The position numbers and the translations under genes are program-made. 23,605 bases of DNA from a virus (Duplodnaviria > Heunggongvirae > Uroviricota > Caudoviricetes), in the IMG/VR virus record IMGVR_UViG_2537562191_000021, positions 1 to 23,605 of that record, one strand, 5' to 3'. The notes beneath the pieces are model-generated. The model was given only the letters and a program-made list of their open reading frames with translations, did no database searches and was not told the origin of the DNA. Positions within the stretch are counted from its first letter, which is position 1, and every line of letters starts with the position of its first letter. Positions 1-23,551 of the stretch are shown here, piece after piece.

Positions 1-53
1 ATGAAAATAATGCAAATAATAACAATGAGATAAAAGAATCTGTCAGGAGATCA

Positions 54-1046
54 TTGCGCGAAAAAATGGCGAAAATGATCCCCGAAGAAGATAAAAGCGC
101 CCCAAAAATTGAGGGATCTTCAGCAATGATCCCTGGCGGTGCTGTGCAACGTGCCACATTGCCCACTACGAATGTGGCTCGCGACATGATGAAGAACGGC
201 GCAGAAGAACACCTGCGGTTAGCAATTCAAATGGCGCAAGAGCGCGCACTTCAGTATCAAAGCATTGTTGATCAGGAGGCCGAACGTCTACAGGCGGAAA
301 TAGACGCCTTGGGCGATAAAGAGCCAGAAGGAATGCACCCTGGGCAGCGCCTTCTCGGTCTAATCAGTGACGCGGCCTACTACATGAATGATTTTATCAG
401 TAGGTTGGCAGCTATATATCAGTCCGAACAAAAGCTGCGACAGGGGGATGAAAAGCTTCGTCAGAGCGCTCGCCAGCAAGCATTCAAAGAGGCTGAGGCC
501 AGAGAAAAACTCGAATTAGCACGCCTACAGGCCGAACAGCGTGGCAAAGAGATTGAATATCGCATTGGCGCTGACGCACGCGCTGCCAGAGTTATCGCCG
601 CCGCTATACGTATGCGTGAGCGCGAGGAACTGGATGATATCGGTGTTGCTGAATACATCGAGCGCCAGGGGGTCAGCGTCCCGGCTATCCTCGCGGCGCG
701 CGCGGCGAAAGCTATCACTCTTCTCGAACCACCTGTTTCTGACGTCAATGATGTTGATGATGAACAGCTGGACAAAGAGGCAAGGGAGTTTGCAACGCTT
801 CAGGCTAACCATCCGCAATGGCTGGCAGAGCGCCGGGCGGATGTGGCAACCATTGTTGAAGAATTGGGGTGCGGAGATTACGACCGCAATGGCGAGCGTA
901 AAGCTGGAGAATTCGAGGCCAACGACGAAGAGCTGGATATTGACCCTTCGGCAACGGCTGAAATTTACGGTGATTATGATGCATCTGATGCAGGGTATGA
1001 CGCCGGAGATGATGATATCGCGATAGAACCGCCGGAGGATGATTAA
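54..1046 (+). CDS. Putative terminase small / DNA-recognition subunit (PacA-like position), probably 5'-partial
   Basis: Reading frame is open from nt 3 to 1046; there is no well-spaced SD for TTG54 or ATG66, so the gene probably begins upstream of the window. Coiled-coil-like centre and strongly acidic C-terminus. Stop overlaps the start of the terminase large subunit gene (TAATG at 1044-1048). Function is inferred from position only. Confidence 0.35.
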   Translation: MREKMAKMIPEEDKSAPKIEGSSAMIPGGAVQRATLPTTNVARDMMKNGAEEHLRLAIQMAQERALQYQSIVDQEAERLQAEIDALGDKEPEGMHPGQRLLGLISDAAYYMNDFISRLAAIYQSEQKLRQGDEKLRQSARQQAFKEAEAREKLELARLQAEQRGKEIEYRIGADARAARVIAAAIRMREREELDDIGVAEYIERQGVSVPAILAARAAKAITLLEPPVSDVNDVDDEQLDKEAREFATLQANHPQWLAERRADVATIVEELGCGDYDRNGERKAGEFEANDEELDIDPSATAEIYGDYDASDAGYDAGDDDIAIEPPEDD

Positions 1047-2554
1047 TGGCTGGCGGGCGCAAGATTAAATGCGTCACCAGCGATCCACGCTGGCGCGATA
1101 TGGTAATCAAATACCGCTACAACTTTACCCAGGCTGTTGTCGATATTTTTGGGATGTTCCCCTCCCACCAGCAGCAGCAGATCATTCAGTCAGTGCAGGA
1201 AACGGGGAGTAGGACGACCGTCACGTCCGGACACGGAACGGGGAAGTCGTCCCTTACCGCGATGTTGCTGTTGATTTTTATGATCCTGTTCCCCGATGCC
1301 CGTGTCATCATTGTTGCTAACAAGATAGGCCAGGTAAAAACAGGCGTATTCAAATACGTTAAACAGTATTGGGCGAATGCAGTTAAGCGTCATGGGTGGT
1401 TGCAGACCTATTTTGTCCTCTCTGACACCATGTTTTATGAGCGCTCCCGTAAGGGGATTTGGGAAGTTCTCTGCAAAGGTTATCGACTCGGCAACGAAGA
1501 AGCGCTGGCGGGGGAACACGCGGCACATTTGCTTCTAATTCTGGACGAAGCATCTGGTATATCTGATAAGGCGATCGGCGTAATGACCGGTGCTCTTACT
1601 GAAGAAGATAACCGGATGTTGATGCTATCCCAGCCAACAAGGCCAAGTGGTTATTTCTACGATTCGCACCATTCTCAAGCAAAAACCCCAGACAACCCGA
1701 AAGGGATCTGGACAGCAATTGTTCTTAACTCGGAAGAATCACCGTTCGTCACACCACAATTCATCAAGCAGAAGCTTCTGGAATATGGCGGGCGCGATTC
1801 TATTGAGTACATGGTCAAGGTGCTTGGTCAGTTCCCACGAGAAATTAACGGCTATTTGCTTGGTCGTGATGAATGCGATCGCGCTGCTCGCCGCAAGGTG
1901 TTGTTGGAGAAAAACTGGGGATGGGTGGCAACGGCTGACGTTGGTAATGGGCGAGATAAGTCGGTCCTCAACATCTGCAAAGTATCTGGTCACAGGGATA
2001 AGCGGCGCGTTGTTAACTTTAAGGTAATGGAGATGCCTGGCACTATGGACCCATTGGCCTTTGCTGACTTCATATATAACGAATGTACGCCGGAAAAATA
2101 CCCGAATATAACAATCGCGGTTGATGCTGATGGTTTTGGTTCTGATACGTGTGCGCAGTTGGTGCGTCGTGGTGCGAACCCGGTACGTATTCGGTGGGGA
2201 AAACCCATGTTTGCGAACAAAGACAGGGAGCGATTTGTTAATCAGCGTGCCTACGCAAATATTATGGCGCGAGATGCCATAAAGTCAGGGCGTATGCGGA
2301 TAGACAGTGACCCTAAAACGGCAGAGCAAGCGTCAAAAATCCCCTTTTTACTGAATGAAGAAGGGAAAATGGCGATGATGCGCAAAGAGCACATGCGGCA
2401 AAAGCTAAACATCAAATCGCCTGACCGATGGGATACCTACTGCTTCACTATGCTGGTGGACTATGTGCCTGCTAATGAAGATATTGGTGCCGAAATGGCA
2501 ACTTTCCGAGATCAGGTTCTGGCGGATATCGAAATGCCGGATCTGGATATATAA
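1046..2554 (+). CDS. Terminase large subunit (ATPase plus nuclease)
   Basis: 502 aa. Walker A TSGHGTGKSS; Walker B LLLILDEASG; C-terminal RNase-H-like nuclease aspartates (VATADVGNG, AVDADGFG, SPDRWDT). Translationally coupled to the upstream ORF. Confidence 0.8.
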   Translation: MAGGRKIKCVTSDPRWRDMVIKYRYNFTQAVVDIFGMFPSHQQQQIIQSVQETGSRTTVTSGHGTGKSSLTAMLLLIFMILFPDARVIIVANKIGQVKTGVFKYVKQYWANAVKRHGWLQTYFVLSDTMFYERSRKGIWEVLCKGYRLGNEEALAGEHAAHLLLILDEASGISDKAIGVMTGALTEEDNRMLMLSQPTRPSGYFYDSHHSQAKTPDNPKGIWTAIVLNSEESPFVTPQFIKQKLLEYGGRDSIEYMVKVLGQFPREINGYLLGRDECDRAARRKVLLEKNWGWVATADVGNGRDKSVLNICKVSGHRDKRRVVNFKVMEMPGTMDPLAFADFIYNECTPEKYPNITIAVDADGFGSDTCAQLVRRGANPVRIRWGKPMFANKDRERFVNQRAYANIMARDAIKSGRMRIDSDPKTAEQASKIPFLLNEEGKMAMMRKEHMRQKLNIKSPDRWDTYCFTMLVDYVPANEDIGAEMATFRDQVLADIEMPDLDI

Positions 2555-2581: not shown

Positions 2582-3619
2582 TTACCAGAGCTTCGCGGCG
2601 TACTGCGTTTGGGGGAATGTGTATCCGTAACGTTCTTCGATTGCTTTGCCGTATTTTTTACGAGCTTCATTCAGTTTAATGCCGGTCAGGTCGTCTCCAG
2701 AGGCCATCATTACGTCTAACAATTCCAGATCCATTTTATCCAGCCTTGCCATTGCTTCACGTGATGTACGTATCTTACGTTCAATGATATGGCGAATAGC
2801 CGGATCGGCATCCTCCAGCATCTTAGCGGATTTCTGCTTAAGGCTTTCATTGCGAATATCGATGTTCCTTAAGATGTACGACTTCGCAACGTAGCTTGGC
2901 TGGTGTTTTTCCAGGTCACGAACACGATATAAGTTAAAATCGCCGAGAAGGCTGCAAGGTACCGATTCGACGCCAGAATAAATTGTAATGCTCCGGCGTT
3001 CACCAACATTATTGACAACGGGGATCGTTGTCTTCGGTAGTCTTGCGAAAACCAATGCGCCATGTGCGCCAACTCTAAAGCGAGAAAGGGCATTGCTGCC
3101 TTCGATGTTTGTTGTCAGCACAACATCTGTATATGCCTCTTTACGCGCCCGGTAGATCTCGCCTTCAGGCTCAGCTTCAAAGAAGCGCTGTTCTTCTTCA
3201 AGAGCACCTACGATTTGAGAAAAAACCCTATTTTTCAGGCTTTTCTTTATGATTTTGTCGTATTTTTTTAGCAATTGTTCACGTGTAAATGTACGTGTTG
3301 TTGTAGCGCTTTGCACAACGACATGCGTGCTTTGATTGGTGTCCTCAATGATGAATGGGATCGGAGAATATACAGACTCAACAATGTTCGACGCTTTGCC
3401 GTCGGCATCGCGGCACATGTCAACGAAGGCTTTCCATTCAGCAAGACATTTTTCAGCTTCTTCTAATATGTTTTGGTCATGCGTTAATGCAACATGGCGG
3501 AATTCCTCGCCAGCATAACTGGTATCATGGAAAACAGAGTTTGCGACCACCAGCTCTTTCCACCGTTCAGCGGTTTGCAGGAACCGTTTGTACTCTTTCT
3601 CGATCGACTTCTTACTCAT
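2582..3619 (-). CDS. Hypothetical protein, 345 aa, no recognised domain; sits at the position an immunity repressor occupies in P1-type genomes
   Basis: Long ORF with no competing frame; divergent from the cre-like gene across an AT-rich 394-bp control region; the recurrent 13-bp motif lies 17-29 bp upstream of its start codon. Confidence 0.6.
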   Translation of the reverse strand: MSKKSIEKEYKRFLQTAERWKELVVANSVFHDTSYAGEEFRHVALTHDQNILEEAEKCLAEWKAFVDMCRDADGKASNIVESVYSPIPFIIEDTNQSTHVVVQSATTTRTFTREQLLKKYDKIIKKSLKNRVFSQIVGALEEEQRFFEAEPEGEIYRARKEAYTDVVLTTNIEGSNALSRFRVGAHGALVFARLPKTTIPVVNNVGERRSITIYSGVESVPCSLLGDFNLYRVRDLEKHQPSYVAKSYILRNIDIRNESLKQKSAKMLEDADPAIRHIIERKIRTSREAMARLDKMDLELLDVMMASGDDLTGIKLNEARKKYGKAIEERYGYTFPQTQYAAKLW

Positions 3620-3635
3620 TATTCCTACTCGATTT

Positions 3636-3648
3636 AGTTTTCTAACAT
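3636..3648 (+). promoter_or_regulatory. Recurrent 13-bp motif AGTTTTCTAACAT (candidate operator), copy 1
   Basis: Exact 13-mer AGTTTTCTAACAT, 17-29 bp upstream of the minus-strand start codon at 3619; the same 13-mer recurs at 22739-22751 and as reverse complement at 17604-17616. Confidence 0.4.
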
Positions 3649-3828
3649 AAAATTACTATGACAAATTTATGTCGAATAACAGAGTGAGTAAAGGATCGAA
3701 CTGTGATTTTTTGTCATCAATTTTAGAAAACCAACCGTAGAAACCACACTTCGCAAATTAAAGACCATGAAGGCAACGTGTTACTGGTCATCATCAATCT
3801 ATGATGGATTTAAAAAAATCGGCATTTT

Positions 3829-3862
3829 ATAACTTTAAATAATTGGCATTATTTAAAGTTAG
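3829..3862. other. lox-like recombination site (13-bp inverted repeats flanking an 8-bp asymmetric spacer)
   Basis: ATAACTTTAAATA / ATTGGCAT / TATTTAAAGTTAG. The right arm reverse-complements to CTAACTTTAAATA, a 12/13 match to the left arm. Arms share ATAACTT..ATA with the canonical loxP arm ATAACTTCGTATA. Lies 152 bp upstream of the Cre-family gene. Confidence 0.55.
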
Positions 3863-3870
3863 GCTATAAT
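3843..3870 (+). promoter_or_regulatory. Putative sigma70 promoter reading toward the cre-like gene, overlapping the lox-like spacer and right arm
   Basis: -35 TTGGCA (3843-3848), 16-bp spacer, -10 TATAAT (3865-3870). Confidence 0.3.
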
Positions 3871-4013
3871 CATGTGTAGATGAACAGTGTTGACATCACT
3901 GAAAATACGTGCTTCGAATCAAAGGCTTGTATTTTGAAAATTAACTTATAGCTACCCTGTCATTTTTATATTTTTCGCGTAGCGTCATCTGTATATAGAG
4001 GTCAAATAGTTTC

Positions 4014-5042
4014 ATGAGTGAATTAATTATCTCTGGCAGTTCCGGTGGTTTTCTGCGCAACATTGGCAAAGAGTACCAGGAGGCCGCAGAAAACTTTATG
4101 CGGTTCATGAATGACCAGGGGGCTTACGCGCCGAATACTTTGCGCGATCTCCGGTTAGTGTTTCACTCTTGGGCGAGATGGTGTCACGCTCGCCAGCTCG
4201 CCTGGTTCCCGATCTCACCAGAGATGGCCCGCGAGTATTTTCTTCAGCTGCATGATGCTGATCTGGCTTCGACCACCATTGATAAGCACTACGCCATGCT
4301 GAACATGCTGCTTTCGCATTGTGGCCTTCCACCACTTTCGGATGATAAAAGTGTTTCTCTGGCTATGCGGCGCATCCGGCGCGAAGCGGCAACTGAAAAA
4401 GGCGAACGAACAGGCCAGGCTATACCGCTGCGGTGGGACGATCTGAAACTGCTCGACGTCCTGCTGTCCAGGTCAGAACGGCTGGTGGACCTGCGCAACC
4501 GGGCTTTTCTCTTTGTTGCATACAATACGCTGATGCGTATGTCGGAAATATCGCGTATTCGTGTAGGAGATCTGGACCAAACAGGTGACACTGTCACGCT
4601 ACATATTTCACACACGAAGACAATAACGACCGCCGCCGGGCTTGATAAGGTGCTTTCCCGTCGCACTACCGCTGTGCTGAATGACTGGCTGGATGTTTCA
4701 GGGCTTCGCGAACATCCTGACGCAGTGCTGTTCCCGCCGATACACCGTAGCAATAAGGCCAGGCTCACGACAACGCCCCTTACTGCACCTGCAATGGAGA
4801 AAATATTCAGCGACGCCTGGGTGTTGCTGAATAAAAGAGATGCTACGCCAAACAAAGGAAGATACCGGACGTGGACCGGGCATAGTGCACGCGTCGGGGC
4901 CGCTATTGATATGGCTGAAAAGCAGGTGTCTATGGTGGAGATCATGCAGGAAGGAACCTGGAAGAAACCGGAAACACTTATGCGGTATCTTCGCCGTGGC
5001 GGCGTGTCTGTGGGGGCTAATAGCCGCCTGATGGATTTATAA
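4014..5042 (+). CDS. cre: Cre-family tyrosine site-specific recombinase
   Basis: 342 aa, alignable along its length to P1 Cre as remembered (WFP..PE, LNML..GLP.PSD, AFL..AYNTL.R..EI.RIRV.D, HSARVGAA.DMA, W...RYLR). Catalytic Arg-His-Arg-Trp-Tyr positions are conserved. SD AGAGG 8 nt upstream. Confidence 0.85.
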   Translation: MSELIISGSSGGFLRNIGKEYQEAAENFMRFMNDQGAYAPNTLRDLRLVFHSWARWCHARQLAWFPISPEMAREYFLQLHDADLASTTIDKHYAMLNMLLSHCGLPPLSDDKSVSLAMRRIRREAATEKGERTGQAIPLRWDDLKLLDVLLSRSERLVDLRNRAFLFVAYNTLMRMSEISRIRVGDLDQTGDTVTLHISHTKTITTAAGLDKVLSRRTTAVLNDWLDVSGLREHPDAVLFPPIHRSNKARLTTTPLTAPAMEKIFSDAWVLLNKRDATPNKGRYRTWTGHSARVGAAIDMAEKQVSMVEIMQEGTWKKPETLMRYLRRGGVSVGANSRLMDL

Positions 5043-5045
5043 ATT

Positions 5046-5058
5046 AAATTTCTAACAC
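5046..5058 (+). promoter_or_regulatory. Recurrent motif copy (AAATTTCTAACAC) immediately downstream of the cre-like stop
   Basis: 10/13 match to AGTTTTCTAACAT with core TTCTAACA intact; lies between the cre-like stop and the SD of the next gene. Confidence 0.3.
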
Positions 5059-5933: not shown

Positions 5934-6424
5934 TTTACGTAAAAGTGAAACGCCTACATCCGGCAGCAAAACTTCCAGCTTATGCCACCTCCGGATCGGC
6001 GGCGATGGATTTTGAGGCTGTTGAAATAAAACCATGCGTCGATAGCAATGGTGCAATTTCCTCAAGCTGGTGGGTGTACACCGGACTGGCTATGGAGATC
6101 CCGCCCGGCTGGTGTCTGAAACTCTATCCGCGCTCCGGATTGGGCTGCAAAAAACATACTCGCCTGGCTAACTGCGTAGGAATTATCGACTCAGATTATC
6201 GCGGTGAAATCATGGCAAAACTGATTACTGATCCCGGCGGGGAAGGCGTTTGTCTCAAGCCTGGAATGGCTGTCATGCAAGGCATTTTTGAGCGTGTTGA
6301 ACAAGTCTCACTAGTCGAGGTTGAGGAACTCAACGAAACGGAACGTGGTGCTGGTGGCTTTGGTAGCACATCGGAAGACCACTTTGAAATCAAGCGCACA
6401 CCGCTTCAGTACGCAAAGTTTTAA
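5930..6424 (+). CDS. dut: dUTP pyrophosphatase (trimeric dUTPase)
   Basis: Conserved dUTPase motifs in order: AKLP..AT.GSAAMD, PRSGLG, GIIDSDYRGE, GMAVMQGIF, ERGAGGFGSTS. Confidence 0.85.
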   Translation: MIYVKVKRLHPAAKLPAYATSGSAAMDFEAVEIKPCVDSNGAISSSWWVYTGLAMEIPPGWCLKLYPRSGLGCKKHTRLANCVGIIDSDYRGEIMAKLITDPGGEGVCLKPGMAVMQGIFERVEQVSLVEVEELNETERGAGGFGSTSEDHFEIKRTPLQYAKF

Positions 6425-11698: not shown

Positions 11699-11980
11699 TT
11701 AGCTATTAATCTTCACTTTTATCGCGAACACCTTTACCGGTTTATCACCGAAGTGTGGATGTGTGATTGTTTTTATTTCATATCCGTTATACGGGACGTC
11801 AATTCTGCGACTGAAGTCGTCGCGCTTCGGATATCCCTTTGTGATAATCAGGCGGTCATATTCCCGGAACATGATTCGCTTATTCCAGTAGTCATTACAC
11901 AGGCGATACTCTTCCGTTTTCTCCCCGCGAATCATGGCATCGAAGTATTCACCTTTGACGGCAAGTTGCAGGTTAGCCAC
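11699..11980 (-). CDS. Small ASCH-like domain protein, 93 aa (GTG start)
   Basis: KGEYFDAMIRGEKTEEYRL resembles the ASCH GxKTxExR motif; GTG start with SD GAGG; overlaps the upstream stop. Confidence 0.45.
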   Translation of the reverse strand: MANLQLAVKGEYFDAMIRGEKTEEYRLCNDYWNKRIMFREYDRLIITKGYPKRDDFSRRIDVPYNGYEIKTITHPHFGDKPVKVFAIKVKINS

Positions 11981-12533
11981 GGTTAACCTCCTGCGGCGGT
12001 TCCGGTAGCGGCATCCAGTCGGTTACATTGCGACTCTGTGTTTCGAAAAATTCATCACCATTGCGGACAATATCGAAAAACTCTCCGTCTCGATATTGCG
12101 CATAAAGAACGAATGCGCCATCACATAAAATAATTACGTGCTGACCATCATCTGGCATTCGCTCACTACAGCTTATCCAACCATCCGGAGTTACCGGAGA
12201 GTTGCCATTTACATCGAAGTTTGGCTCTGCGTCCTGAACCAGGAGGATGTAACCATTCTTGGCTGTATCAAGTTCTAACGCCTCGGTGACGGTGCCGAAA
12301 TAGCGATTACCTAAATCAGCATCACAAGTGCTTACATCAATGGAAACTTCCATGCCTTCGATTAATTCTGGTAAGTTGTAAGTTTGGTTTACAGGCTCTG
12401 CTTCCAGCGATGCCAGAGCAATTCGTGCCAGTTCTTCCGCTTCTTCTGCTGGCAGTACAACGTTGCTACCCGGTCCGTATGTTTCGCGCCACTGCTTGAT
12501 TGTCAGCAGTCGCTCTTTGGTAATAGTGATCAT
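11973..12533 (-). CDS. DUF551-domain protein with ITKER-family N-terminus
   Basis: 186 aa; N-terminus MITITKERLL...ELARIALASLEAEPV; C-terminus GWISCSERMPDDGQHVIIL...DWMPLPEPP is typical of DUF551 in enterobacterial prophages. Confidence 0.6.
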   Translation of the reverse strand: MITITKERLLTIKQWRETYGPGSNVVLPAEEAEELARIALASLEAEPVNQTYNLPELIEGMEVSIDVSTCDADLGNRYFGTVTEALELDTAKNGYILLVQDAEPNFDVNGNSPVTPDGWISCSERMPDDGQHVIILCDGAFVLYAQYRDGEFFDIVRNGDEFFETQSRNVTDWMPLPEPPQEVNRG

Positions 12534-13045
12534 GCCGCGTTTCCTTCTTTCTTATTAACAATTACACCGTCATATATTTCATTAAGGTGCCCTCTCAACT
12601 CCATGCGCCTTAATGCAGATAACATGTAATCGCATTCAACCTGCTTATTTCCAGTAAATGGCTTATCGTCAGGATTACCCCAACAGCAATTACCCTTGGG
12701 CCACCCATGTACTTTCCGTACTCTTCCGTTAACAACGTGAAGTAATCCCCAGCCAGGTGGTAAATCCTCAACTGAAATAATTCCCGGCTCACTAATAAAG
12801 AATCGCCAGTCGCCCATTCCAAGAGATGGATTTTTACGAAAACGCTTTTTTCTATCTGCCAACAAGTCAGCACGAGAACACTTCGCCTCTATCAGGCATG
12901 ATGCTGAATTTCTGAATCCCATAGCATCTGGCTGTTCTCCGGTACTGGTTACAGCTATAAAGCGGTCATGAAAACAAACCTTGAACCCGTTGCGCTTAAG
13001 GAACTTATACGCAATCTGACAGAGTTCGCGGTGTGTTAACGCCAT
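12530..13045 (-). CDS. Hypothetical protein, 171 aa, with a candidate PD-(D/E)xK nuclease motif
   Basis: Start at ATG 13045 (MALTHREL...), SD AAGGAGAG inside the duplicated leader; motif QPDAMGF-x10-LIEAKCS fits PD-x(n)-ExK. The N-terminal extension to 13117 is rejected. Confidence 0.5.
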   Translation of the reverse strand: MALTHRELCQIAYKFLKRNGFKVCFHDRFIAVTSTGEQPDAMGFRNSASCLIEAKCSRADLLADRKKRFRKNPSLGMGDWRFFISEPGIISVEDLPPGWGLLHVVNGRVRKVHGWPKGNCCWGNPDDKPFTGNKQVECDYMLSALRRMELRGHLNEIYDGVIVNKKEGNAA

Positions 13046-13418
13046 ATCACTCTCCTTTAGTGCGCAAGTGGTTTTTCCAGCGGTTTTGCGCCGCGCTGGG
13101 CTTTTTGCAAAAACCACAATCCATCATCCCGTAATATTTCATCAACCCCATCCGTCGGTTGCTGAGTCTCACCCACTGCCAGACGCCAGGAGCGTTTCTA
13201 CGAACTAACAGAATCTTTGCTTTACGGTTTTTCATCGCTTTGCTCTCCTGCGTCTCTTTGCTGCTCGTCGTGCCGCTGCAATACCGGTATGGCGGCGCTT
13301 TGGTGCCGGGATGATGTTGTCAGCCATCAGGACATGTGGCTTTGCAATTAGCGCAGAAGCCCAAAAACGAGTCGGGTACGGTAACAAGCCGAAAAATGCC
13401 ACACGCATTACTCATCTC
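13041..13418. repeat. Duplicated cassette leader, copy 1 (about 378 bp: unit A 13041-13236, unit B 13237-13418)
   Basis: Near-identical to 13972-14167 (unit A, 2 mismatches) and 14341-14521 (unit B, mismatches only at its distal end); read by direct comparison of the sequence. Confidence 0.9.
13047..13235 (-). CDS. Small basic protein, 62 aa, encoded inside the duplicated leader (copy 1)
   Basis: MKNRKAKILLVRRNAPGVWQWVRLSNRRMGLMKYYG...; SD AGGAGAG 8 nt upstream; stop TGA one nt before the ATG of the downstream gene. The two copies differ by one synonymous and one Lys/Arg change. Confidence 0.4.
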   Translation of the reverse strand: MKNRKAKILLVRRNAPGVWQWVRLSNRRMGLMKYYGMMDCGFCKKPSAAQNRWKNHLRTKGE

Positions 13419-13770
13419 CCTTACCCTGAAGCATGGCAGCGCGGCAGGCGTTCCAGCCATCAACATAATCAAACGTATTGCTATCGTCTGGCTCGATTTC
13501 ATCCGGCACTACCGGCTCTGGTTGGATAGTGACGTTGGCAAAGGCAGCACGCAAACCGGCCTTAATTTCCTCTACTTCATCAGCGCCTAGCGATGAATCT
13601 GACAATGCGTGATGGAATGCGTAAGCCATGTCGTCGTTTACTGCAACCGGTTCGGCTTCCAGTGATGCCAGCGCAATTCGTGCCAGTTCCATTTGTTCGC
13701 CACGGGTAAGCCCGTTATCAAGCGGATTTTTAATGAATAATTCGATACGTTCTTTGGTAATAGTGGTCAT
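13408..13770 (-). CDS. ITKER-family protein, 120 aa
   Basis: MTTITKERIELFIKN...QMELARIALASLEAEPVAV; shares nucleotide-identical patches with 11973-12533 over the conserved N-terminal motifs. Confidence 0.55.
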   Translation of the reverse strand: MTTITKERIELFIKNPLDNGLTRGEQMELARIALASLEAEPVAVNDDMAYAFHHALSDSSLGADEVEEIKAGLRAAFANVTIQPEPVVPDEIEPDDSNTFDYVDGWNACRAAMLQGKGDE

Positions 13771-17562: not shown

Positions 17563-17603
17563 AATGCATACCGACTCTGTTTTGTTCCGAGCGGTAAAAT
17601 AAT

Positions 17604-17616
17604 ATGTTAGAAAACT
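17604..17616 (-). promoter_or_regulatory. Recurrent motif copy (reverse complement AGTTTTCTAACAT), exact
   Basis: Lies in the 98-bp gap between the phosphatase gene and the DUF968 gene; a degenerate second copy (core TTCTAAC at 17627-17633) lies 10 bp away in the opposite orientation. Confidence 0.4.
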
Positions 17617-17660
17617 AAAATCAATGTTCTAACGCGTTTTTGAGTGCGTAAGTGATTTGA

Positions 17661-22082: not shown

Positions 22083-22095
22083 GTGTTAGAAAATC
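22083..22095 (-). promoter_or_regulatory. Recurrent motif copy (reverse complement GATTTTCTAACAC) in the divergent control region
   Basis: Core TTCTAACA intact; lies between the minus-strand array start (22044) and the Ref-like gene start (22162). Confidence 0.35.
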
Positions 22096-22161: not shown

Positions 22162-22740
22162 ATGCAGAAACAGAGCTACTGGGAGAAACAGAGACAAAAA
22201 GCCATGCAAAGATTGGCTGACCCGGCCTGGCGAGAGGAACAAAGGGCAAAGCGCCTTCAACAAGCTCAACGCCAGCAGCAGCGAGCGAGAGAAAAAGCCG
22301 CATCGCCTGAATATCGGCAAAAGAGAATTGAAAAAGCAAAGCAATATGACCAGCGGAGAAAAGAGAAAGCTGTATCCGCTCCGTCCAAAAAAACACGCAC
22401 GTCACGCGGCCTGAAGGGCAGATCACTCACAGCCGATGAACGCCGGATACAGACCGCTATCGGTACTCTCCCCTGCATTGCCTGCCATATTCACGGGCAA
22501 CATAGCCCAGTGGTATCCCTGCACCATATCTTCGGGAGAACGGCAGAGAACGCGCATAAATATGTCCTCCCTTTGTGTAAATGGCACCACCAGTACGCAG
22601 CGCCAGCCGAGGTCCGAGAACAATATCCCTGGCTGGTCCCTGTTCATGCTGATGGAAAAATAGGCGGAAAAGCAGATTTCATACGGCACAATGCCGATGA
22701 AATGGCGTTGTATCAGATGGCAATTGAATTGATAAATTAG
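22162..22740 (+). CDS. HNH-type endonuclease with a lysine/arginine-rich disordered N-terminus (Ref-like, RecA-dependent nuclease family candidate)
   Basis: 192 aa; the first roughly 80 aa are K/R/Q/E-rich and low-complexity; C-terminal core has CIACHIHGQH...SLHHIFGRTAEN...LPLCKWHH (Cys/His metal ligands with an HNH-like His-Asn-His pattern). Architecture matches P1 Ref as remembered. Confidence 0.5.
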   Translation: MQKQSYWEKQRQKAMQRLADPAWREEQRAKRLQQAQRQQQRAREKAASPEYRQKRIEKAKQYDQRRKEKAVSAPSKKTRTSRGLKGRSLTADERRIQTAIGTLPCIACHIHGQHSPVVSLHHIFGRTAENAHKYVLPLCKWHHQYAAPAEVREQYPWLVPVHADGKIGGKADFIRHNADEMALYQMAIELIN

Positions 22741-22751
22741 TTTTCTAACAT
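22739..22751 (+). promoter_or_regulatory. Recurrent motif copy (AGTTTTCTAACAT), exact, abutting the Ref-like stop codon
   Basis: Exact 13-mer starting 2 nt inside the stop codon of 22162-22740. Confidence 0.4.
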
Positions 22752-23239: not shown

Positions 23240-23343
23240 AATACTGACTGTTGCGCCCTGGCATTATCGTGGGGTATATTTCTACGGCACCTTAGAAAAA
23301 CGGGTGCCGGGATTGGAACCCCGGATAATGTCAAAGGCGACAC

Positions 23344-23367
23344 AGACGCCGAAAGCGTCTTTTTTTG
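23344..23367 (+). terminator. Rho-independent terminator
   Basis: agacgc-cgaaa-gcgtct, a perfect 6-bp stem with 5-nt loop, followed by TTTTTT. Confidence 0.6.
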
Positions 23368-23551
23368 TGTCATGCCATCGCACAGCCATACGTAGCGTTT
23401 AGCTCAGAGATCAATGGTAGTGCTGGCTGGGCTGCCGAAAGGCAGGCCGGTTCCCTTTGACGCCGGTAGTTCCAACCCAGTCAGTGCTACCGCCATTGAG
23501 ATTGGAACCTCACGCGGTAGCTCCTTAACTTAGTCAAAGGAGGCTGCCAAT

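Follow-up and report, generated by a model that had tools for sequence, protein, structure and literature searches.

The Dre/rox system is routinely used beside Cre/loxP in mice, zebrafish, worms and bacteria and is a standard genome-engineering tool. It was reportedly described by Sauer and McDermott in 2004, who are said to have shown its distinct specificity by experiment. The site, rox, has a 4-bp asymmetric spacer flanked by a pair of 14-bp inverted repeats and is the substrate of the Dre recombinase of phage D6, which recombines rox and does not cross-react with Cre/loxP (PMC4777119 and PMC12331466, both crediting Sauer and McDermott 2004); cross-recombination between the two systems is absent (PMC4777119). 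The rox 32-mer has been used in heterologous hosts, and its sufficiency without accessory sites or host factors is known from such use (PMC4777119, PMC12331466). In mutants of rox, altering the four central bases alone had a mild effect on compatibility, and changes that included the first base of each arm abolished recombination with wild-type rox; the authors inferred that the crossover region of rox is nearer in length to that of loxP and reaches into the arms (PMC4777119). Other Cre-type tools are described, in PMC3082901, PMC3553980 and PMC4957104, as tyrosine recombinases with short inverted-repeat sites adjoining their genes on phages and plasmids. The site sequences of VCre/VloxP, SCre/SloxP, Vika/vox, Nigri/nox and Panto/pox differ from the one analysed here and their proteins are more distant, while recombinases of Pantoea plasmids gave weak DNA matches covering 3–16% of the query.

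The rox site and the dre gene in the window

A repeat finder applied to the window (the whole stretch of 23,605 nucleotides that was analysed) identified a perfect 14-4-14 palindrome at 3830–3861, TAACTTTAAATAAT-TGGC-ATTATTTAAAGTTA, lying in the local sequence ...TTTTA TAACTTTAAATAAT TGGC ATTATTTAAAGTTA GGCTATAAT.... No other perfect inverted repeat with arms of 14 nt (gap 0–8) occurs in the window, and 40 dinucleotide-preserving shuffles contained none; the repeat is far beyond chance expectation. A search of the whole window for further copies of the arm with up to two mismatches found none. The palindrome is the exact reverse complement of rox, TAACTTTAAATAAT-GCCA-ATTATTTAAAGTTA, and corresponds exactly, with every base identical, to the rox site annotated as misc_recomb at 4909–4940 of AY753669. 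When the segment 3500–5200 was compared with phage records by megablast, Escherichia phage D6 was the sole match, and the D6 features beneath it were c1, the 'region of crossover (rox) site for Dre recombinase' and dre. Over the 401 columns of the c1–dre intergenic alignment the window and D6 are 99% identical, and the eight substitutions between them all fall outside rox. In the complete D6 genome record the ends of the linear sequence lie halfway through rox, where the annotation reads 'right half of rox site (lox in P1)'.

The open reading frame downstream of the palindrome was compared with D6 Dre and with P1 Cre. Identity to D6 Dre extends to 340 of the 341 aligned residues, the difference being I251L; the last residue is L in the window and S in D6 (S342L), giving a total of 340/342. 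The frame carries a Pfam Phage_integrase domain (PF00589, 5.3e-17), and all its best matches of known structure are to Cre, native or engineered (E about 6e-69), with Dre residues 22–341 aligned to Cre 21–340, the N-terminal DNA-binding domain included; the copy of the PDB that was searched contained no Dre structure. With P1 Cre the frame shares 41% identity across 322 residues (E 4e-77). All six catalytic residues (R175, K202, H290, R293, W316 and Y325) are present, in the numbering of PMC4777119 except for K202, which was placed by way of the Cre alignment, where it aligns with Cre K201. Judged by its sequence, the window Dre is an intact Cre-type tyrosine recombinase, and the I251L/S342L allele is presumably active.

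The surroundings of the module are those of D6 as well. The gene order pacA (cut at the start of the window)–pacB–c1 (minus strand)–rox–dre–orf2–orf3–dut is that of the D6 immC record, so that the same genes flank the module in both, pacA, pacB and c1 on one side and orf2, orf3 and dut on the other. Compared with Dre/rox of phage D6 (AY753669, MF356679), the window has an identical 32-bp site, the recombinase just described and the same 152-nt spacing between site and gene, and differs by I251L, S342L and the eight intergenic substitutions outside rox. A single place in the D6 genome accounts for 47% of the window; coverage is no greater because the downstream accessory genes are mosaic. The best match to the whole window is the E. 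coli plasmid pE2863-2 (96% coverage, 99.9% identity), followed by many non-mobilizable E. coli and Salmonella plasmids of ~90–95 kb. Annotation adds further P1-type features, namely doc/phd, the Ref nuclease and an Icd-like gene, and the window thus contains the gene set of a P1-type phage-plasmid (pacase subunits, a C1-type repressor, doc/phd, ref and a c4/icd immunity region).

Two further regions of the window were characterised alongside the module. Rfam matches above the gathering score were obtained for isrK at 23287–23365 (62.7 bits) and for C4 antisense RNA at 23410–23497 (77.1 bits). These RNAs, and the ash-like and Icd-like genes in the pE2863-2 counterpart, indicate an immunity region of the P1 immI type. 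A segment of ~1.3 kb (12431–13748) is missing from pE2863-2, which has ~147 bp in its place. This segment starts in the 3' end of a DUF551 ORF (11973–12533, minus strand) and contains small minus-strand ORFs that lack a Pfam match, as part of a mosaic accessory region.

We consider it virtually certain that 3830–3861 is rox and that ORF 4014–5042 is Dre, together forming the recombination module of a D6-like, P1-type phage-plasmid of E. coli, and nothing in the analysis speaks against this identification. The Dre/rox pair is already known, and its appearance in the window is a rediscovery of a characterised system. The earlier note, which had been written without knowledge of the source of the DNA, was right to describe a diverged Cre homolog here and to place the site 152 bp upstream of the recombinase gene, there being 152 nt between the end of the right arm at 3861 and the ATG at 4014.

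Features of the recombination module and its surroundings (coordinates are positions in the window)
Feature	Coordinates	Strand	Description
pacA (cut)	1-1046		part of the P1-type order pac-c1-site-recombinase
pacB	1046-2554		part of the P1-type order pac-c1-site-recombinase
c1 repressor gene	2582..3619	-	divergent from dre; D6 and plasmid annotation
rox site, 32 bp	3830..3861	+	perfect arms; identical to annotated D6 rox; arms exact in at least 27 related loci
rox left arm	3830-3843	+	TAACTTTAAATAAT, 14 nt
rox asymmetric centre	3844-3847	+	TGGC as read on the dre strand; usually printed in the other orientation, as GCCA
rox right arm	3848-3861	+	ATTATTTAAAGTTA, 14 nt, 100% complementary to the left arm
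Candidate sigma-70 promoter toward dre	3843..3870	+	TTGGCA-16-TATAAT, 11/12 match
Candidate -35, TTGGCA	3843-3848	+	last left-arm base, 4-bp centre and first right-arm base
Candidate -10, TATAAT	3865-3870	+	3 nt beyond rox; right arm fills the 16-nt spacer
TTGACA hexamer	3890..3895	+	unchanged in every lineage with Dre of at least 89% identity; changed in L015
Conserved dre-leader block	3944..3984	+	ACTTATAGCTACCCTGTCATTTTTATATTTTTCGCGTAGCG; ~40 nt, conserved even in L015
12-mer TTTCGCGTAGCG	3973-3984	+	exact match to P1 162-173, in the lox-to-cra leader
Shine-Dalgarno-like AGAGG	3997..4001	+	12 nt before the dre ATG; conserved in relatives with at least 89% identity
dre, Cre-type tyrosine recombinase, 342 aa	4014..5042	+	identity to D6 Dre, Pfam, Cre structures, catalytic residues

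Conservation of rox among related loci

Plasmid relatives were chosen so as to span the range of identities, and 22 IMG/VR loci were added from a scan for the arm pattern with a free 4-bp centre; each locus was oriented on its recombinase gene before comparison. The rox arms are exact, and in the same position and orientation, in at least 27 related loci, which bears out the expectation of the earlier note that homologous elements should keep the inverted repeat here. Where the Dre homologs are 89–100% identical, the offset from rox to the start codon is 152–153 nt and TGGC lies on the gene strand, and at locus L015, where the Dre homolog is 70% identical, the arms are still exact. In multiple alignments rox stands out as an island, with a left flank that cannot be aligned between lineages beside a 32-mer that is almost invariant. 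The base immediately 5' of the left arm is A in D6-type sequences and C in six other lineages, and this variation supports a conserved unit of 32 bp rather than 34 bp.

Altered centres accompany exact arms at three loci (read on the recombinase strand): TAGT in L007 (512–543, CP059289), TAGC in L015 (3706–3737) and GGGG in L021 (12405–12436). All other loci read TGGC. These centre variants could act as natural heterotypic sites that block Dre-mediated fusion of co-resident D6-like plasmids.

Two loci depart from the pattern in the arms themselves. A single left-arm substitution, TAACTTTAGATAAT, is present in L003 (NZ_CP069886.1) next to a Dre homolog of 99.1% identity, constituting a natural asymmetric arm variant. 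The Salmonella plasmid NZ_MK356557.1 (L004) carries, within ~500–1716, an indel in the left arm, TAACTTCCAAATAAT, next to a broken and unannotated recombinase frame; with both the arm indel and the broken frame it was rejected as a variant site and is read as a decayed module or as the product of sequencing errors. When species-representative genomes were scanned for the rox-arm pattern, one match only was recovered, at 6381–6412 of L009, from the chromosome of an uncultured Clostridia MAG (OZ007016.1). Around a TAAT centre, this palindrome continues outward into an A-run on one side and a T-run on the other; the ORFs flanking it are convergent, and no Dre homolog was found within 8 kb. It was rejected as a rox site, being most likely a coincidental AT-rich hairpin of a bidirectional terminator.

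The rox–dre interval compared with P1 lox–cre

Cre of P1 belongs to the same protein family as Dre and has the same catalytic residues, and its site is likewise a simple one that shares arm bases with rox and is located between c1 and the recombinase gene. The sites differ in architecture, 13-8-13 in loxP versus 14-4-14 in rox, and at three central arm positions. The likeness extends into the leader: the leader of the D6-type locus is collinear in alignment with the lox-to-cra leader of P1, with TTTCGCGTAGCG and the ribosome-binding context common to both, and on this collinear alignment the dre start codon falls at the place of the P1 cra start. A structured RNA in the conserved dre leader was rejected, since the consensus fold has an energy of -3.6 kcal/mol and its covariation term is unfavourable; the region also had no Rfam match.

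By contrast, the two intervals differ in what they contain. In P1 (L032) the gap between lox and cre (18–435) is 418 nt long and includes the cra ORF, Dam sites and three promoters, which the P1 record places at 104–129 (P3cre), 283–312 (P2cre) and 400–424 (P1cre), all of them outside lox. The gap between rox and dre (window 3862–4013) has 152 nt, with no cra, no GATC and none of the P1 cre promoters, and the promoter-like match of the D6-type locus overlaps the recombination site, as the P1 promoters do not.

Owing to the homology of Dre to Cre, the reaction can be expected to follow the same steps, and the mutational data of PMC4777119 are consistent with this. By analogy with Cre, one Dre monomer would bind each 14-bp arm and two rox sites would be synapsed in a Dre tetramer, in which cleavage by Tyr325 would yield 3'-phosphotyrosyl intermediates and strands would be exchanged pairwise via a Holliday junction. 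Exchange would take place within and next to the TGGC centre, whose asymmetry would set the direction of the site, and neither accessory sites nor host factors should be required. The module would most likely serve to circularise terminally redundant DNA after injection and, again as proposed by analogy with P1 lox–cre, most likely to resolve plasmid dimers and so to ensure faithful segregation of the low-copy prophage; the literature searched yielded no direct D6 data for either role. A search of the window and of D6 pacA for a P1-type pac site, defined by clustered TGATCR Dam hexamers and relevant to the spacing of pac and rox that cyclisation would need, found no such cluster.

A candidate promoter overlapping rox

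The promoter hexamers that the earlier note had seen overlapping the site, TTGGCA-16-TATAAT, were confirmed. On both strands of the 23.6-kb window this is the sole match of at least 11/12, a quality that shuffles of the 394-nt intergenic region attain in 1.8% of cases; the default threshold of 9/12, by comparison, is uninformative at 31% G+C, being reached by 85% of shuffles. Of the 27 related loci that show this position, 26 have TATAAT at an unchanged offset (the exception, L008, reads CATGAT), and L015, at 70% protein identity, keeps the -10 although the surrounding sequence has changed. Because the rox centre is asymmetric, the -35 is present on the dre strand only. A promoter on the minus strand running from rox toward c1 (ATGCCA, 14-nt spacer, TAAAAT) was considered and rejected, its flank not being conserved. 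The literature searched yielded no paper on a promoter within rox (the original 2004 description of Dre/rox possibly discusses one) and nothing relevant on autoregulation of the cre promoter.

Dre bound to rox would cover the -35 and the spacer of this candidate promoter, and could plausibly repress its own transcription; exclusion of RNA polymerase by rox-bound Dre would be expected because the right arm occupies the promoter spacer. Further downstream, the TTGACA hexamer may represent the -35 of a second dre promoter. The -10 candidates that follow it are weak (TTCGAA or TCGAAT), and the promoter scan called nothing there.

A separate 17-nt motif, TTTAGTTTTCTAACATA, occurs in three exact copies, at 3633–3649 (+), 17602–17619 (-) and 22736–22751 (+), and in degenerate copies at 3720–3732 (-), 5046–5058 (+) and 22083–22095 (-). 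The region immediately upstream of c1 has a copy at either end, the two being inverted, and a weak copy directly follows the dre stop codon, ahead of orf2. The TCTAA core of the motif bears a loose resemblance to the P1 C1 operator, which makes the copies candidates for operator sites of the C1 repressor in D6-type elements. Since they overlap neither rox nor its promoter, their arrangement suggests that dre is not under direct immunity control.

Readings of the palindrome other than as a known rox site were weighed against these data. The earlier note had taken it for a loxP-like element of 34 bp with 13-8-13 architecture at 3829–3862, by implication a new lox variant whose specificity would not yet have been described. 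As the note has it, the left arm in its written form shares ATAACTT and ATA with loxP and departs from it in the centre, at three positions; the recombinase is just 41% identical to Cre, and the functional crossover region of rox may have roughly the length of the 8-bp loxP spacer (PMC4777119). Given those mutational data, an 8-bp spacer is not an unreasonable functional view; the accepted description is nevertheless 14-4-14, and two inverted arms around an asymmetric core, the architecture of a simple site, are what the window contains. In the 34-bp frame the outermost pair, A3829 and G3862, is a mismatch at an unconserved position, which leaves the 13-bp arms 12/13 complementary, and the 8-bp 'spacer', ATTGGCAT, includes two base pairs of the palindrome at either end, so that only four of its bases are asymmetric. 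The site therefore has neither the perfect 13-bp arms nor the fully asymmetric 8-bp spacer of the loxP type. The proposal is correct at its core, with a strong inverted repeat at this place, a lox-type site paired with a diverged Cre-family recombinase, and a distinct specificity of the kind reported for D6 Dre (PMC4777119, PMC12331466). A novel specificity, however, is refuted by the identity of the 32-bp core to the published and annotated rox (AY753669, 4909–4940) and of the protein to Dre, and the chance that this is a new lox variant is next to nil. It is also very improbable that the palindrome is mainly a transcription signal, as an operator or promoter of dre or a terminator or operator of c1, with recombination secondary or lost at this locus. 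The overlapping 11/12 promoter match with its conserved -10 would fit such a role, as would the resemblance of the Clostridia MAG sequence, with its identical arms, to a bidirectional terminator, but Dre is intact with all catalytic residues and both arms are fully conserved, well past the needs of a -35 hexamer. Moreover, a T-run after the hairpin is absent in the window, and the motif proposed as a C1-type operator differs in sequence and is located elsewhere.

With the palindrome identified as rox, we consider it possible, though rather doubtful, that the site also serves as operator for the main promoter of dre, with Dre repressing its own synthesis in a manner unlike that of P1 lox–cre. 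Several features of the sequence point in this direction: the candidate -35 lies in the rox centre and forms on the dre strand only, the right arm makes up the promoter spacer, the -10 follows 3 nt past the site and is kept down to 70% protein identity, and the match has no equal of its quality in 23.6 kb. In P1, in addition, the annotated cre promoters lie outside lox, and the P1 Dam sites have no counterpart in the D6-type gap. Set against this, the unchanged TTGACA and the conserved leader block suggest additional promoters or controls for dre, and the centre variants TAGT, TAGC and GGGG each weaken the -35 of the overlapping candidate promoter, yet persist. Conservation beside rox could merely reflect the short evolutionary distance among most of the loci, and promoter-like matches are common in a region of 31% G+C.

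As the recognition of a real heterospecific lox-type module from sequence alone, the result has little discovery value. The overlap of rox with a promoter match, and the autoregulation that it makes plausible, form the sole part for which no documentation was found, and their scope is modest. For users of the system, native rox together with the following 9 nt is predicted to form a near-consensus match to an E. coli promoter, and bacterial constructs that retain the native rox flank could show unwanted transcription or Dre-dependent repression; the natural rox sites with altered centres, beside Dre homologs of 70–99% identity, are ready-made candidates for heterotypic sites. If rox is indeed the operator of dre, occupancy of rox by Dre would set the level of Dre, and the centre would be doubly constrained, by strand exchange and by the strength of the -35. 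Variants of the centre would then shift both the recombinational compatibility of the plasmids and the expression of dre.
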